A stretch of DNA of 64,000 nucleotides from a virus. Taxonomy: Duplodnaviria; Caudoviricetes. The stretch covers positions 1 to 64,000 of the IMG/VR virus record IMGVR_UViG_3300001598_000048. One strand, given 5' to 3'. Below the pieces are notes generated by a model. The model saw only the letters and a list, made by a program, of their open reading frames with translations, was not told the DNA's origin and ran no database searches. How positions within the stretch are numbered: position 1 is the stretch's first letter; each line of letters opens with the position of its first letter. Of the stretch, positions 9,093 through 58,521 are shown piece by piece. Both the position numbers and the translations under genes were made by a program.

Positions 9093-9524
9093 TTATAGTT
9101 TATCAGTTTCTATGTACTTCTCTCCTCACATTGTGGCTTGTGCTTCAAATCAAACCGCATCATATTCAGGAAGAGTAAAATATTTTTCTCTATTGTGTTT
9201 TAAAAGATATTCTCTATACCAATATCTTGTTGCAGATGGAATTTCAATTACAAAAAGATAAAGCGGTCCTCAGATGATATTTTGAAGTCCATGACCGCAT
9301 TCGTGTGATTGGATATAATCTTCTTGACAATCTTCTCCACATAAGAAGAAACAGCCGAAACTTACACCACCCCATCCTTTGGAAATAGTCTTATATATAC
9401 GTTCGTGATATTTATGCATTTTACCAAATGGTAAAATCATAAGAATTAAGCCGATTAAAGTTGCAGGTAAACCCCAAGTAAATGATAGAATGTAAAATAA
9501 AATTAATCAAAGTTTTCTTTTCAT
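9093..9524 (-). CDS. Small membrane protein with HExxH motif (143 aa, TGA=Trp), absent from the ORF track
   Basis: RBS GAGGTG, ATG at 9524; hydrophobic N-terminus MKRKLWLILFYILSFTWGLP; SHECGHGLQ; 4 TGA and 3 TGG; TAA at 9093. Confidence 0.75.
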
Positions 9525-9599
9525 AATACACCTCATATTTGATTTTATATAATTTATTATAGTAAATTCAATTTACAAAAAACAAATTTGAAATTAATC

Positions 9600-9628
9600 T
9601 TGACAAAATGAAAAATTAGTATTATACT
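9600..9628 (+). promoter_or_regulatory. sigma70/sigmaA-type promoter
   Basis: TTGACA-N17-TATACT. Confidence 0.8.
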
Positions 9629-9661
9629 ATGATGTGCAACAAAAAGTAAGGAGTAAATTAA

Positions 9662-10231
9662 ATGATAATAAAATGTTACAACGAAAGTCATAAAAATTTA
9701 ATTTTTCTTGATTTGGAATTTGAAAATAGAACACTTATACAATTTGCGGGATTATTATTCACTTGAATAGATGACGAAACATATCAATTGACAAGAAGTT
9801 GTAATCAATATGTAACCGCAAAAGTTTGTTATCCTTTTATGGAGTATACAAGTATTACTACGAATTTTCTAGAAGAAAACGGCATTACACTTAGAGATTT
9901 ACAAATTATCGTTAGAGATGATTTTTTAGCAGATGTAGATTTAGATGATACATTAGTTATTAGCCACGGTTTGCGCAATGATAGATTGATACTTGAAGAA
10001 AACGGCATTAATCTAATTTCGAAAAATGACAAACCCATCGATGGATATTGCACTTTTAATAATGCTCGTCGTATTTTAGAGCGCGAAAATCATGTCTCGG
10101 CTGCAGAACTTGCAGAGGAGGCGGGATATTATCTACATCACGCGCATAACGCATTTAACGATGTTTGGAGTGAAGTATCAATCTATACATTCTTAAAAAA
10201 GATAGAAAAACAAAAATTAGGAGATAAATAA
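9662..10231 (+). CDS. DEDDh (DnaQ-like) 3'-5' exonuclease (189 aa, one TGA)
   Basis: RBS AAGGAG; FLDLEFE (ExoI-like) lies upstream of the in-frame TGA at 9764; HHAHNAFND (ExoIII-like) downstream. Confidence 0.7.
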
Positions 10232-10710
10232 TGGAATTTTTATTATTAGACAAATTAAAAACCAATCAGGAATTTAATTATACTATGGTTGAATTTAATT
10301 TAGATTTGAATCAACATATGTTAAGTAATATCGCATATATAAATCAAGTTTTTAAAGATTATTTTTCATCTGTTAGTTATACAGCAATTGAAACTGAATA
10401 TTTAATAAGAATAAATATTGCGGATCAAATTGATGATGAGGAGGCATTTTTCAGCAATGCGGTTAAAACGATATTAGCAAAATTCGTTGATAATTTCTGC
10501 ATTTATGAAGGTCGTCCAAGAGAACATAGATTTGACATTCCTGAAAAATTATTAGATAAGATTATGATTAGTCGTTCACTTTTAAAGAAAATGATAAATC
10601 AAAAAACAAAAGCGGATCGAATTAATATTACTATTGTATGGAAAACCGCAAATGAGAATTTTATTTATGAATTATTAAATACTAAACATCCAGGTGAAGC
10701 GCATGAATAG
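10231..10710 (+). CDS. Hypothetical protein (159 aa)
   Basis: Translationally coupled ORF with RBS AGGAG. Confidence 0.7.
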   Translation: MEFLLLDKLKTNQEFNYTMVEFNLDLNQHMLSNIAYINQVFKDYFSSVSYTAIETEYLIRINIADQIDDEEAFFSNAVKTILAKFVDNFCIYEGRPREHRFDIPEKLLDKIMISRSLLKKMINQKTKADRINITIVWKTANENFIYELLNTKHPGEAHE

Positions 10711-11197
10711 AAAATTAGATTTTTATACAGATGGAGCTTATTCTTCTAAAAGTGAAATGGGCGGTTGAGCCGCGCTTTGTATTGAAGAAGATGAAGTAAT
10801 TAATACAAGAACTGGTTATGAACCATATTCAACAGGAAATAGATGCGAACTTTTGGCGCTCTTAAGTGCTTTAGAAGATGCAAACACTGTGGAAACAAGT
10901 AGAACAAAGATAACTATTTATACTGATAGTGCATATGTTGCGAATTGTTTTGCAGATGGTTGGTATAGAAATTGGTTATCAAATGGTTGGAAAACTGCGG
11001 ATAAACAACCAGTTAAGAATCAAGATTTATGGGTAAGAATAATTGCATTATATATTAAAATGAAAGAAAAACGTGATCTTGAAATTGTATGGATTAAAGG
11101 ACACGCTAAAAATAAATGGAATGAATATGCGGATTTACTTGCCAAGAAACAGAGAATTTTATTAGAACAAAAGATGAAGGAGGCAGATGAAAAATAA
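10703..11197 (+). CDS. rnhA: Ribonuclease HI (164 aa, one TGA)
   Basis: YTDGA...GG[TGA]AA, NRCEL, IYTDSAYV, VKNQDLW, WIKGHA, NEYADLLA; TGA at 10766 falls on the conserved GGW position. Confidence 0.92.
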
Positions 11198-11736
11198 TGA
11201 AAATATTAATTTTAATGCCTTGCGATGAACAGCACGTTTATGCCGCAAGTGGTATATATAAAGCGCTTTCAGATGAAGTAAAAGATAAATGCTTTGTTAT
11301 GCCAATGTTTATGGATTATTTAATTAATACGAAAATAGTTGGAAATTGGATAATGGCTTTCTATGATGCTTTAATTAGTGCTAAGAATCTATGTAAAGCC
11401 GCAGATGAAAAAAATGATGATGTTATTATTATTGGAAATGCTCCATCTGCCGTTAAATTTGATGCTGTTTTCAATTTTCAAGATATAGAAGAAGATATGG
11501 CTTATGAAGATAAGTTTATTGAAAAGATAAAAGAAATAGTTGCTGAAAATGAAAAATTAATCGGCTATGTTAATGATTTACATAAAGCCGAAGAAAGTAA
11601 AATGCCTTTGCATAATTGTAAGGCTACAGGCGAATTTTTATCTGCTTATATTAAAACAGATGCAAAGTTAAATTTATTAAAAGAAGAATACGAACAACGT
11701 CTTAATAGGAAAATTCCAGATGTTCTCGAAAGCTAA
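11197..11736 (+). CDS. Hypothetical protein (179 aa)
   Basis: Coupled ORF with RBS AGGAGG. Confidence 0.7.
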   Translation: MKILILMPCDEQHVYAASGIYKALSDEVKDKCFVMPMFMDYLINTKIVGNWIMAFYDALISAKNLCKAADEKNDDVIIIGNAPSAVKFDAVFNFQDIEEDMAYEDKFIEKIKEIVAENEKLIGYVNDLHKAEESKMPLHNCKATGEFLSAYIKTDAKLNLLKEEYEQRLNRKIPDVLES

Positions 11737-13024
11737 TAATTTTGAATTAGACCTTAAAGATTTGGATGAGTCTCAGCTCGCAGCCGTGACAAGTGCGGAA
11801 GAAAATGTCGTTATAAGGGCTTCGGCAGGTAGCGGCAAAACTAAATCTTTAATAAGTGCGATTGCAAATTACAGATATGAACATATTAACGATAGGATTT
11901 GCGCAATTACGTATACTCGTGCCGCACGTTCTGAAATGGAAGAACGTTTAAAAAATATGGGTATATTTGATGTAGAAGTTACTACAATCCACGTATGAGC
12001 CCGCAATCAATTAGAATTCTTTGCGGATCATTATGACTTCTTAATCAATATTTTACAAGAATCGCAAATTAAAAAGATATTAAAGAATGAAATTGTGCCG
12101 CAATATCTTCTAAAATCTAAGGTTAAATCTGTTAATATTGATATTTTATATACTTATATCACTGGTAGTAAAAATATGGATATAAGTGATAATTATCGCC
12201 GCACACTAAATGCAATTGAAACAAGATATATAGATTATAAACGAAATCAACATCTGTATGATTTTACAGATTATCCTTTATATCTATATGATGTATTAAC
12301 TATTTATAATGAAAATATAAATACTATTGATGCTTTATTTGTGGATGAGTTTCAAGACGTTGATGAAACACAATTTAAGATATTTGAAAAAGTTAATACA
12401 AATAAGAAATTCTTTATTGGCGATCCTTGGCAAAGTATATTTGTTTTTAGAGGAGCCGATGGAGAAGTTTTCAGCAAACTTGACAAATTTAAACAATATA
12501 AATTAAAATATAATTATCGTAGTTATCAAGAGATTATTGATTACGCAACTACTGTATATGATACACTAAAAAAAGATGTAGAAATTGAAGAAGAAAATCC
12601 AAATGGATTTTATATTTCAGAGATTAATTGAAGCGATCCGAGTTCTGTTATTTGTGATAGAAAATATGGTGGTTCAGTTACTGTTGTTAATCCTTATAGT
12701 GTAAGTTGAATTTTTACTGATACTAATAAAACTTATGTTGCATCTACTCTTGAATTTAATAATATTATGACTTCTAATCCGATGATACTTTGCAGAACGA
12801 ATAAACAAGTAAGAGAAATTCAGTCTTGTGGTTATATTAATGCAAGTACGGTTCATCAAGCAAAAGGATTGGAATATGATAATGTTATTGTTATTGATTG
12901 CGATATAAAATCAATGGAAGATTTGAATATTGCTTATGTTGCAATGACACGAGCAAAAAACAATCTTTTTGTTATTAATTGAAGTCAATTTGAATTATTA
13001 TTTAAAAATTGACTGGAGGGATAG
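11720..13024 (+). CDS. UvrD/Rep-like SF1 helicase (434 aa, 5 TGA)
   Basis: ASAGSGKT, ITYTRAA, VDEFQD, IGDPWQSI, NYRS, TVHQAKGLEYD, YVAMTRAK in one frame across TGA at 11996, 12629, 12707, 12980 and 13010; TAG at 13022. Confidence 0.9.
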
Positions 13025-13025
13025 T

Positions 13026-14714
13026 ATGTGGACTAATTATAATTTAACCGATCTATTGTATTCTGTAGTTGGAAGAAAACCTACTAGTTCTATGTCTATA
13101 ACTATCAAAATGAAACAATTAAAACAAGCATTTAATAGTATCGATTTAGTGCTTATTTATAATAATAATCTTGATGATGTAGATATTACTTGAAAATATG
13201 GTACATATGAAAATAAACCAGTTTTAGATTTTACACACGGATCTGTTGATTATGTTACTGTTCAAATACAAGCAATTGTTCTTGCACAACTTTTTAAATA
13301 TTCTACTGATGTGGAGGGAATACCATCTCAGGAAATAGAATTTATTTATGATCCTCAGATTAAAATGAATAGAACAAATGATATAAATTGATATAATATG
13401 TTTACAAATGATATAGGAGTGCAATTTGATGATTCTTACGGTTATCGTTGAAGTGAATCTAAATATTTAGAAAATGCTACAAACATTTTTTCAATACAAA
13501 ATTTAATAAGTAATTCTGATGCTGCAAATGCGATGAATGGAAATGTTATTCATTATAGATATGGAGTAAATGGAAAAGCAATAAATGCAAAAGGAAGAAT
13601 TGGTACAGATATAACAACTGAAACAGGATATAGAGATAAAAATACTGGTAGTTATTTTGATTTTTATAATAAAATTGAATATCTTGGTATGTATAGTGAG
13701 TCTGAAAATAATTTTTCTCATTTTGATGCAAGTAATCATTTTGTTACTTTAAATGCTTCTGGAAGTTCTATATCATACGAAGGTCCTTTTATATTTGCTC
13801 GAGTATGCAATGATTATAATTGTTTGTTAGAAAACTATTCAGATATTTATGCAAAAACAGATCATAATTTTAGTTATATATCCTATCAACAAGGAATTAA
13901 TTTAAAATTAAAAAATAAAACTATTGAATATTTCTTTGGAAATAATTGTACAAATCCTTCAAAAATTGCTAAACCAATTGATTTAGACGGAAAAATTTCT
14001 TTTAGTTCTTTATCTTCTAGTTTATCTTCTACATATTCTTTTGATGGTTCTAGTATTACACCAGAAACTAATATTAAAATAGAAGTTCCACAATTAAGTT
14101 CTGATGTTATTGGATATGATACTGCTTGAGATATTGCAAGACATATAAAATTAGAAAATTTTGCAACAGAAAGAAAACTTTATATACGATATTGAAAACA
14201 AGATGATGGAGAAAAGATTTCTTCTATAACTTTAAATAATTTAAGTCATATAACATCATCTTGTTTGAAATTCACAGATTTTAATATAGAATTATTTAAA
14301 CCTTGAAATATAGTAAATCCAAAATCTACTCTTTTAGGATGAGATTTAACTACAAACTATAATCTAAATCTCTCAAATACAGTATCTTATAGTTGAAATG
14401 ATAATTGAACTGGAGAAACACTTTATTTCGAAAGACATGATAGGAAAGAATATGGTTATGTAATTTTAGGAAAATATGGAGATTTACAATTAACAAATGA
14501 TAAGAATTTATTAAATTTAACAGATGAAGGACATAATTATTATATACAATTAGATAAACCAGATAATTATAGACAATATGCAATGTGAAGAAGCAAAAGT
14601 ACGGAATCAAATCATTTAACATATTCTATTACTTCTTTCTGTGAACCAGAAAATTCTAATAAATATAGATATTTTGTTTTTAAATTGTACAATATTACGA
14701 ATTCTATTAATTAA
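13026..14714 (+). CDS. Hypothetical N/S/T/Y-rich protein (562 aa, 10 TGA)
   Basis: RBS GGAGG, ATG at 13026, open to TAA at 14712 when TGA=Trp; includes track ORF 13533-14129. Confidence 0.75.
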
Positions 14715-14721
14715 AATTTTC

Positions 14722-14750
14722 TTGACAAATAGAAAAAAATATACTATAAT
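14722..14750 (+). promoter_or_regulatory. sigmaA-type promoter
   Basis: Perfect TTGACA-N17-TATAAT. Confidence 0.85.
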
Positions 14751-14801
14751 AATAATATAAGGATAAGTATTAACTTATCCTTTTATTGAAAGGAAAAAAA
14801 T

Positions 14802-17217: not shown

Positions 17218-18498
17218 ATGAGTACTTTAATTTATAGCATTAGCGATAAACCAAAAACCATTAAGGAGTGATGTTTATATACATTACAAATGGTTCTTGC
17301 TGTATTTGTTGCTACAGTATTAATTTCTGATATATGCGGAACTCCAGTCAGTGCCTGTTTAATTGGCGCTTGTATTGGAACAATTATTTATCAATTAATT
17401 ACAGGATTTAAATCGCCTATGTTCATTTCAAGTTGCGGCGCCACAGTCAGTGCTGTTATTGGCGCACTTGCACTTCCAAGTATTAATGGACAAAACTATT
17501 TAATGGTAGTTTTTGGCGGTATTATTATTGCGATTGTTTATATGATTTTTGCCGCCTTGTATCAAATTAAAGGCGCTAACTTCATTAATAAAATATTACC
17601 ACCAACTATCGTAGGCTCAATTACAATAGTTATAGGTTTAAATCTTGCGGGATTTTTAATTACTTATACGCATGATAGTAATACTTGAGAAGTAATCGTT
17701 GCTATTTGCACTATGTTTGTAGTTGTGGTTTCATCGCATTATTTTAAAGGTTTTATGAAAACCATTCCATTTTTATTTGGTTTAGCATTTGGATATGTGT
17801 TTTGTTTAATATTAAAATTATTCGACATTAATATTATTAGTTTTGAATCTTTTAATAATTTACATTGATATCCAGAATTTACTTTCTTAAAATGGAATTC
17901 AGGTGATTTTAGTTGGTCTAATTTAGGACAAACAGTATTATTATTCTTACCAGTTGCTTTATGCGCTATTTGCGAACATATTTCAGATCATAAGACTTTA
18001 TCTAATATAGTAGAACAAGATTTAATTGCAAATCCGGGTTTAAATAAAACTTTACTTGGAGATGGAATTGCTTCTGCCGTTGGAACAATTACGTGTGGTT
18101 TACCTAATACAAGTTATGGTGAATCAATTGCAACAATAGGTTTTAGTAAAGTTGCATCTGTATGGATTACGACTGCGGCGGCCGCATTTATTGGTTTACT
18201 GTCATTTTGTGCGCCTATTACTGCTTTTATAGAAACAATACCAAGTTGTGTATTTGGTGGTTGCGCAATGGTCTTATATGGATATATTGCAGCAAGTGGA
18301 TTAAAAACATTAATGAATAATAAAGTAGATTTAGAAGATAATAAAAATCTAACTATTGTATCAGTTGTATTATGCGTAGGAGTAGGTGGAATATTTTTAT
18401 TTAGCGCATCTTTTGCTGGTGTAAGTTTAGCAATGGTATTAGGTGTTATTTTAAATCTAATTTTAAGGAATAAAAATGACGAAGAAGGAATTAAGTAA
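17218..18498 (+). CDS. uraA: NCS2-family (UraA-like) nucleobase permease (426 aq-equivalent: 426 aa, 3 TGA)
   Basis: One frame joins track ORFs 17290-17688 and 18268-18498; EHISDH, GLNKTLLGDG, GLPNTSYGES, VLYGYIAASG signatures; many TM segments. Confidence 0.88.
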
Positions 18499-39791: not shown

Positions 39792-39977
39792 ATGATATTT
39801 ATGACAAATGAAGAAATTATTAAATTCAAACTTAATGTAAATAATTTTACATTAGAAGAATTAAAAAAAGAACAACAAGACATTCAAGCTTCAATTAGTA
39901 AAATGATTCTTGATAGTGATTTAATTATTAAAGCCGCCATTATTGAAACTTTAATTAATGAAAAGGAAGCTAAATAA
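39792..39977 (+). CDS. Hypothetical coiled-coil protein (61 aa)
   Basis: RBS AGGAG; coupled to the RuvC-like gene. Confidence 0.6.
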   Translation: MIFMTNEEIIKFKLNVNNFTLEELKKEQQDIQASISKMILDSDLIIKAAIIETLINEKEAK

Positions 39978-40699
39978 TGGGTAAACTTTCACATCAACAA
40001 ATAGCAGATGAAATAAAGGAAAAAGGTTTTGAATTAATAGACGATACGGGCTATACGAATATGACAAGCCGCATTATTGTTAAATGCGGAAAAGGACATT
40101 TATCAGAAACATCACTTGCGGATTTTAGACATCCTAGTTTTAATTGTCCTAAATGCGATAAAAATATTAATTTTATTAATCCTACTGCAGTTCCAGCGAA
40201 AGGAAATAAAAGAAGAATAATTGCATTTGATCAAGCGACTGAAAAATTTGGATTAAGTATTTTTGATAATGGAGAATTAGTATTTTATAATCTATATCAA
40301 TTTAGCGGTGATTTAGTTACTCGTTTAGTTAAATGTCGCAAATTAGTAAATAATATTGTTATTGGAAAATGAGAACCTGATTTTATTGTTATGGAAGATA
40401 TACAGATGCAAAATGGAACTATAACTTTTAAAGTATTATCAATGTTACTCGGCATTATAGAAGAATGTTGCGCCGAAAATAATATTGAGTATGAAGTTGT
40501 AAGTCCTAATGTATGACGTAAATTTGCCGGCACTTGCGGAAAAACTAGAAATGAAGAGAAAAAATTAAGTGTAGCAATGGTTGCGGAAAAATATGGCATT
40601 AAAGTTACTGACGATGTCGCTGAAGCTATTTTAATCGGCAGATATGGCGTAAAGATGCATGGTCAAGAAATTACAATGGCATTTGGTAAAATAAAATAA
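39977..40699 (+). CDS. ruvC: RuvC-like Holliday junction resolvase with N-terminal Zn-ribbon (240 aa, 2 TGA)
   Basis: C..GH and CPKC; IIAFDQAT; VMEDIQ; SPNV[TGA]RK; DDVAEAILIG; TGA at 40370 and 40514. Confidence 0.85.
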
Positions 40700-58492: not shown

Positions 58493-58521
58493 ATTATAGT
58501 TTTAATTTTGGGTTTTGTCAA
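58493..58521 (-). promoter_or_regulatory. sigmaA-type promoter of the RNR cassette
   Basis: TTGACA-N17-TATAAT on the minus strand. Confidence 0.85.

Follow-up and report, generated by a model that had tools for sequence, protein, structure and literature searches.

In virulent phages such as T4, T7 and SPO1, promoters and sigma factors set the middle and delayed-early gene classes, and production of accessory nucleases and helicases follows that of the first replication proteins. Closer to the DNA analysed in this study are gut phages in which TGA is recoded to tryptophan, described by Borges et al. in work that reportedly appeared in Nature Microbiology in 2022. These TGA-to-Trp recoded phages include the ~127-kb 'Agate' clade, recoding among them is known to extend beyond virion and lysis genes, and an endonuclease inside an early gene was proposed to be held back by TGA (10.1101/2021.08.26.457843). 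Here, an operon of DNA-processing genes at positions 9600-14714 was analysed in a 64,000-nucleotide stretch, referred to as the window, of the IMG/VR virus record IMGVR_UViG_3300001598_000048. The window represents the first 64 kb of a contig of 73,445 bp with a GC content of 29%, derived from a gut or rumen-type phage in which TGA is recoded to Trp, and coding is dense across the window once TGA is taken as a sense codon. A previous sequence-only reading of this DNA had proposed that the operon encodes nucleases and a helicase locked behind TGA codons, i.e. enzymes which are transcribed early and produced only after the switch in genetic code. Comparison with related phages suggests that, on balance, the operon is probably an accessory module for which there is no need until the genetic code has switched; TGA would be tolerated in it to a graded degree, with no designed lock.

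The operon comprises six open reading frames (ORFs; lengths in amino acids, aa), bordered by two promoters and followed by a replication region:

9600..9628, + strand: sigma-70/sigmaA-type promoter, TTGACA-17 nt-TATACT, 11/12 consensus positions
9662..10231, + strand: DEDDh-type 3'-5' exonuclease of 189 aa, with TGA at codon 35 (window position 9764) and TGG at codon 169
10231..10710, + strand: 159-aa ORF with 0 TGA and its own GGAG ribosome-binding site
10703..11197, + strand: RNase HI of 164 aa from ATG (alternative GTG start at 10694), with TGA at codon 22 (window position 10766) and six TGG
11197..11736, + strand: 179-aa ORF with 0 TGA and its own GGAGG ribosome-binding site, predicted alpha/beta fold
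11720..13024, + strand: short UvrD/PcrA-like superfamily 1 (SF1) helicase of 434 aa, with TGA at codons 93, 304, 330, 421 and 431 and one TGG
13026..14714, + strand: 562-aa ORF with 10 TGA and 1 TGG, a GGAGG ribosome-binding site, an N/S/T/Y-rich product and a GC content at third codon positions (GC3) of 0.08
14722..14750, + strand: promoter of the ligase unit and 3' boundary of the operon, perfect TTGACA-17-TATAAT
14.8-37.6 kb, + strand: replication region with ATP-dependent ligase, nucleoside deoxyribosyltransferase, two topoisomerase II subunits, Sak, DnaB, primase, RecJ, DnaE-type polymerase and DnaQ-like exonuclease

Four of the six ORFs require UGA decoding, as under the standard code (code 11) the exonuclease, RNase HI, helicase and 562-aa ORF would yield short dead peptides, with stops after 34, 21, 92 and 55 residues, respectively. 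These truncations, the promoter at 9600 and the numbers and positions of the TGA codons were all as described in the sequence-only reading, from which the two TGA-free ORFs (10231-10710 and 11197-11736) had been absent. The general point of its proposal, namely that recoding extends beyond lysis and virion genes, had already been published (10.1101/2021.08.26.457843). TGA specifies Trp in this phage, because TGA and TGG are swapped at invariant Trp columns in the orthologue alignments of RNase HI, the UvrD-like helicase and the exonuclease, and because Trp occupies the TGA site in the solved RNase HI structure 3h08. Outside the invariant Trp columns, TGA aligns with aromatic and hydrophobic residues. 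Orthologues align across every TGA, and the Pfam RNase_H and UvrD-helicase alignments also span TGAs, which shows that the reading frames are genuine.

To compare TGA use across the lineage, two scans of IMG/VR were performed with the helicase, yielding 26 loci with helicases of 39-63% identity. Gene order is kept across these loci, i.e. exonuclease, (159-aa ORF), RNase HI, 179-aa ORF and UvrD, with the ligase a little downstream in several of them. In the phage studied here, the TGA : TGG count of the operon is 17 : 11 vs 7 : 78 for the + strand replication block (Fisher p = 5e-8). The operon itself is divided in this respect: its first four ORFs (2 : 9) resemble the replication block (p = 0.27) and differ from virion genes (p = 9e-4), whereas UvrD and the 562-aa ORF together (15 : 2) resemble virion genes (p = 0.22). 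No TGA is present here in the ligase, both topoisomerase subunits, Sak, DnaB, primase, RecJ or DnaE, and the conserved Trp columns of the core replication genes do not contain TGA in any of four genomes compared. When counts were pooled across relatives, TGA : TGG was 0 : 144 for the ligase and 0 : 58 and 0 : 54 for the topoisomerase subunits (0 of 256 in total), vs 17 : 30 for the exonuclease, 18 : 115 for RNase HI and 32 : 61 for UvrD (Fisher p = 1e-6 to 2e-15 for these three families against the ligase). The operon families thus differ in kind from the replisome with respect to TGA.

The TGA codons of these families are not conserved. At least one TGA was observed in 10/26 relatives for the exonuclease, 10/23 for RNase HI and 16/26 for UvrD; TGA is absent from the respective genes in 16/26, 13/23 and 10/26 loci, or in about 12/21, 10/19 and 8/22 distinct sequences. 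Furthermore, TGA is under-used. The neutral expectation was taken as the share of A-ending Lys, Glu and Gln codons in these genes (74-84%). In the codon counts, which are pooled from related sequences and in which ancestral TGG is possibly short of equilibrium, TGA accounts for 15% of the Trp codons of RNase HI vs 78% expected (p = 4e-48), 13% of those of the 179-aa ORF, 37% of those of the exonuclease and 38% of those of UvrD. Avoidance of TGA is thus seen in the operon families too, if less strictly than in the replisome, whereas a selected lock would predict the reverse. TGA in nearly all relatives, or a preference for TGA over TGG, as a lock would require, was found only for the hypervariable ORF after uvrD. 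Steady richness in TGA is confined to the helicase and this ORF.

Switching between TGA and TGG among relatives, which the sequence-only reading had named as an outcome that would speak against it, was indeed observed for both the exonuclease and RNase HI and, in part, for UvrD. Positional conservation is nevertheless a poor test, because the Trp columns of virion genes flicker in the same manner, 23/34 conserved columns being mixed TGA/TGG among the four genomes.

Residues of the Exo I, II and III motifs (D17, E19, D107, H162 and D167) are invariant in the exonuclease family alignment, and orthologues match Pfam RNase_T in 4/7 cases (best E 9e-11) and DEDDh_C in 5/7, which places the predicted product of 9662-10231 among the DEDDh (DnaQ/RNase T) exonucleases. 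The query alone was below the Pfam threshold, with phrog_192 (E 9e-4) as its sole match, and its family profile returned no match at E <= 0.01 against PDB sequences; hhalign assigned a probability of 49% to its relationship with the phage's own DnaQ-like gene. The single TGA, at codon 35, follows D17/E19, while the remaining Trp at codon 169 is encoded by TGG. At codon 35, most relatives encode Arg (CGC, CGT or AGA) or Lys, and TGA otherwise occurs only in L057, where it arose separately.

The identity of RNase HI, as judged from profile and motif matches, is secure. The protein scores 107.8 bits against Pfam RNase_H (cut-off 25.8) in an alignment that spans the TGA, matches phrog_531 at E 5e-46 and matches PDB 3h08 at E 1.7e-28, with its D/E/D/D motifs (TDGA, NRCEL, TDSAY and YADLLA) aligned to those of 3h08; its NCBIfam equivalog score was 118, under the cut-off of 160. 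At the TGA site (codon 25 in GTG numbering), the 16 relative sequences with Trp divide into 11 TGG and 5 TGA, the latter in L050, L051 and L055-L057. This TGA also lies within a small GC-rich hairpin, GCGG-TTGAG-CCGC (10761-10773), where it forms part of the loop.

The helicase matches Pfam UvrD-helicase (PF00580, 118.8 bits, spanning TGAs), UvrD_C (PF13361, 57.7 bits) and phrog_1967 (E 1e-66), and its GSGKT, DEFQD and later helicase motifs are invariant in the family alignment, consistent with a UvrD-like helicase of the SF1A type encoded at 11720-13024. Assignment as a UvrD, PcrA or Rep equivalog was rejected, as the NCBIfam scores were 79-91 bits vs cut-offs above 900. Trp93 of the helicase is invariant, its codon being TGA in nine relatives and TGG in the remainder. 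In relative G003, the UvrD-like gene (L003:8813-11200) contains an insertion of ~350 aa matching LAGLIDADG, Hom_end and Hint, i.e. an intein.

The 562-aa ORF did not yield any relative through Pfam, PHROGs or BLAST against the related phages, and its GC3 equals that of tail-fibre-like genes. In eight relatives (L002:11318-13009, L003:11187-13028, L051 and L053-L057), ORFs of 563-881 aa with 7-20 TGA lie directly after uvrD; these are N/S/T/Y-rich as well, and most are without detectable similarity to one another. Overall, the TGA-rich ORFs at this location contain 6-20 TGA, those of L001 and L007/L008 being shorter and located further downstream. The slot that follows uvrD and precedes the next TGA-free unit is, on these comparisons, hypervariable, and it may represent a cassette for host interaction or anti-defence. 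When replisome and virion genes were contrasted by a synonymous-codon classifier, RNase HI scored -5.0 (replisome-like) and the 562-aa ORF +1.2 (virion-like), values which provide a hint only, given the weak separation of the two classes.

With regard to operon layout, the promoter at 9600-9628 is followed by AAGGAG and the ATG of the exonuclease at 9662, and the six ORFs are tightly packed, touching or overlapping by 1-17 nt, with ribosome-binding sites. In 13/26 relative loci, including L001, L003, L050-L052, L054-L057, L065 and L067, a promoter-like site (10-12/12) precedes the exonuclease gene by 54-63 nt, the distance being about 59 nt in many relatives. No intrinsic terminator was found between 14714 and the promoter at 14722. 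Sites of the perfect or near-perfect TTGACA-17-TATAAT class precede the operon (9600), the ligase (14722), a small gene (18666), the topoisomerase units (19745 and 21730) and DnaE (31559), and also occur at 58521 (- strand, ahead of a 620-aa gene and its neighbours) and at 70465 in the contig (a gene with 8 TGA). Within the long structural blocks, promoter matches fall only inside coding sequence. Transcription of the operon probably starts at a promoter of the host-sigmaA type, the class that also serves the replisome units, and it is plausible that operon and replisome genes are transcribed together. An inverted repeat of 10 bp, AAGGATAAGT ATTA ACTTATCCTT, was observed at 14759-14782, immediately 3' of the -10 box in the ligase promoter; it would form the 5' end of the ligase mRNA or an operator.

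The contig is most likely an incomplete genome, since ORFs run off both of its ends and since IMG/VR contigs of 92-130 kb, which show 1 to 42 tRNA matches each, are syntenic with nearly its whole length. Replication and recombination genes occupy the + strand from 14.8 to 37.6 kb, and the - strand encodes tail-fibre-like genes and the remaining genes common to related phages. Cumulative GC skew reaches a minimum near 8-10 kb, an interval that includes the divergent intergenic region before the operon, and a maximum near 38 kb; both extremes (~9500 and ~38000) match switches in gene strand and may reflect the replication origin and terminus, or simply coding-strand bias.

As for promoter use and timing, we infer the source of UGA decoding, which is most likely a phage-encoded tRNA-Trp(UCA). 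In the syntenic relatives G001 and G003, a tRNA(UCA) gene of 95-97 nt is located 6-10 kb ahead of the operon, and a tRNA(UCA) is also present in contigs of L005, L006, L052, L053 and L056; the copy of G003 maps beyond the left end of the contig studied here. Relatives carry tRNA-Trp(CCA) besides tRNA(UCA), and no consensus promoter was found directly before tRNA(UCA) in G001 and G003. A cellular lead is provided by L127 (JAEDHQ010000038.1), a contig of 17.9 kb with a 75% identical DnaE, which was binned in 'MAG: Bacilli bacterium isolate MAG140', a metagenome-assembled genome (MAG). MAG140 encodes release factor RF2 at 482.8 bits, above the cut-off, with a second match that is probably RF1. 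This represents a weak lead to the host, as binning is no proof of a host link. Nonetheless, the tRNA(UCA) of relatives, RF2 in the MAG and the exclusion of TGA from the replisome favour a host that uses the standard code and a phage that makes the switch, and this is probably the case.

The long tRNA(UCA) was also considered as a tRNA-Ser-like molecule, which was ruled out on account of its tRNA-Trp body (A1-U72, G73) and an extra arm that copies the Trp CCA anticodon loop. This extra hairpin lies in the variable region (L003:334-428 (+); L029:2930-3026 (+); L130-L246) and displays a 7-nt loop, (C/G)UCCAAA; the sequence of its stem varies between copies, with pairing kept, and CCAAA occurs in 26/51 distinct long tRNA(UCA) forms of IMG/VR. 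A literature search did not identify any publication on an extra anticodon-like arm of tRNA(UCA).

Under the explanation preferred here, 9600-14714 would constitute a conserved polycistronic accessory DNA-metabolism module that heads the + strand replication region. The core replisome would have to be made before the switch, so that TGA would be excluded from it absolutely; the accessory module would not be needed that early, so that TGG-to-TGA and Arg-to-TGA changes could persist. RNase HI and the exonuclease would still resist TGA, with one lineage-specific TGA each in this phage, while the helicase and the hypervariable ORF would have drifted to the TGA level predicted by mutation bias. As a side effect, full-length exonuclease, RNase HI, helicase and 562-aa protein would appear only once the suppressor is active. 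An adaptive gate would instead mean that TGA codons were selected in order that an early mRNA yields protein only after the suppressor has accumulated, sparing early replication from harmful activities. Such a gate agrees with a promoter class that is the same as that of the TGA-free replisome units, with the presence of TGA in at least one of exonuclease, RNase HI and UvrD in every close relative, with TGA at UvrD Trp93 throughout the close clade (about 54-63% identity) bar one member, and with a large ORF after uvrD that is TGA-rich in every relative having one. It also agrees with further TGA-rich nuclease genes, namely the RuvC-like gene (24 TGA : 10 TGG in 14 distinct sequences, far more TGA-saturated than RNase HI) and a putative GIY-YIG nuclease gene near 70465 (8 TGA), and the same logic was proposed by Borges et al. 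for an intron endonuclease in an early gene. The Trp93 codon, the ORF after uvrD and the two nuclease genes all weigh against graded tolerance, as do three further points: TGA under-use may be partly due to time rather than selection, the equation of a sigmaA-type promoter with early expression would rest on other Firmicute phages, and a tRNA gene search of the whole 73-kb contig found none, and hence no tRNA(UCA) suppressor. However, each of the three genes is without TGA in 38-62% of relatives, two operon ORFs are TGA-free, the TGA of the exonuclease stands in place of Arg/Lys and has its only counterpart in L057, and the RNase HI site is mostly TGG. RNase HI uses TGA at 15% of its Trp codons vs the 78% expected, and the fraction of RNase HI genes with at least one TGA (10/23) is not above the per-codon prediction (about 58%). 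An adaptive gate is, in our assessment, unlikely. Of the proposed lock on harmful enzymes, what stands is that four of the six ORFs need UGA decoding; selection for it is disfavoured, because the TGA share is far below the A/G bias and the TGAs are lineage-specific. For RNase HI and the exonuclease, the comparative data speak more for graded tolerance than for an adaptive gate, while gating of the helicase and the hypervariable ORF is possible. A variant in which each gene is timed at translation, in a graded manner, by how many TGA codons it contains, so that a 'middle' class is carved out within one host-type promoter class, seems quite unlikely: one TGA would cause a slight delay or damping (exonuclease and RNase HI), five to ten would hold expression until the suppressor is abundant (helicase and hypervariable ORF), and premature stops in the first gene might, through polarity, reduce expression of the genes that follow.

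The TGAs of the exonuclease and RNase HI could also be recent, slightly deleterious mutations or minority variants in a metagenome consensus, devoid of regulatory meaning, and the exonuclease may be decaying. Close relatives encode Arg (CGC, CGT, AGA) at exonuclease codon 35, AGA to TGA being a single base change, each of the two genes has one TGA and otherwise uses TGG, and both families strongly avoid TGA. Nevertheless, this is very unlikely, as the RNase HI site is TGA in five more relatives (L050, L051 and L055-L057), all catalytic motifs are intact, and such changes in a phage in which TGA specifies Trp are missense or synonymous rather than knock-outs. A host that natively uses table 4 (as Mycoplasmatales do) would dispense with a switch altogether, and the TGA-free replisome would then be a recent import from standard-code phages. 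The lack of tRNA genes in the contig and its low GC content (29%) are in line with this scenario. Yet ligase and topoisomerases are TGA-free in relatives at only about 30-75% protein identity, and hence no recent import, TGA is under-used everywhere relative to the A/G bias, and the only cellular genome with a related contig encodes RF2 (482.8 bits); a native table 4 host was rejected on these grounds. The ownership of both tRNA(UCA) and tRNA-Trp(CCA) by relatives likewise argues against it, leaving it extremely improbable.

With regard to the two TGA-free ORFs of the operon, weak orthologues (28-38% identity) of the 159-aa ORF occur at the same position in 6 relatives, and orthologues of the 179-aa ORF in 12. 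An AlphaFold2 model of the 179-aa ORF (mean predicted local distance difference test score, pLDDT, 86.5) returned no Foldseek match at E <= 1e-3; its matches to P-loop-kinase-like folds were weak (Foldseek E >= 4e-3, VIA-align Z <= 6.7, which is background level), and it lacks a Walker A motif. Neither of these ORFs, nor a 147-aa membrane protein encoded divergently from the operon (9093-9536, - strand), had a usable Pfam, PHROG or NCBIfam match. There is an HECGH (HExxH-like) motif in the membrane protein, and its gene has 4 TGA; the position beside the operon is conserved, with TGA in 9/9 relatives and a pooled TGA : TGG count of 39 : 25. The otherwise TGA-free ligase unit is closed by a 426-aa gene (17218-18498, + strand) with 3 TGA, which matches an unnamed PHROG family only and contains exactly one TGA, at varying sites, in each of six relatives. 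The RuvC-like gene encodes a resolvase with an N-terminal HNH-like part (39977-40699, + strand), in which both conserved Trp sites are TGA in most relatives.

Three tiers of TGA use are thus observed in one phage lineage: TGA is lacking from the replisome, tolerated yet avoided in the accessory DNA enzymes, and at saturation in the virion genes and the hypervariable ORF. From gradients of this kind it can be deduced which functions a phage needs ahead of the code switch. In practical terms, gene callers that apply the standard code will break up or overlook the genes for the exonuclease, RNase HI and the helicase as well as the 562-aa ORF. The operon fits the published code-switch model of Borges et al. 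and adds no new mechanism to it.

As in Agate-type phages, TGA occurs at Trp positions, replication genes adhere to the standard code, structural genes are recoded and relatives carry tRNA(UCA); membership of the Agate clade would agree with TGA recoding and with the genome size of the relatives (92-130 kb). The catalytic motifs and domains resemble those of bacterial RNase HI (3h08 and the E. coli 2rn2 family), DnaQ/RNase T DEDDh exonucleases and UvrD/PcrA SF1A helicases, although the helicase comprises 434 aa vs 668-725 positions in the NCBIfam UvrD, PcrA and Rep models. Gene-family statistics are given here for an exonuclease, RNase HI and UvrD operon, unlike in the paper of Borges et al., and the module lies here between the two extremes (13-38% TGA), being TGA-depleted rather than TGA-preferring. 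Unlike the gene classes of T4, T7 and SPO1, any delay in this phage would come from decoding, i.e. from the availability of the suppressor tRNA, and not from a separate promoter class.

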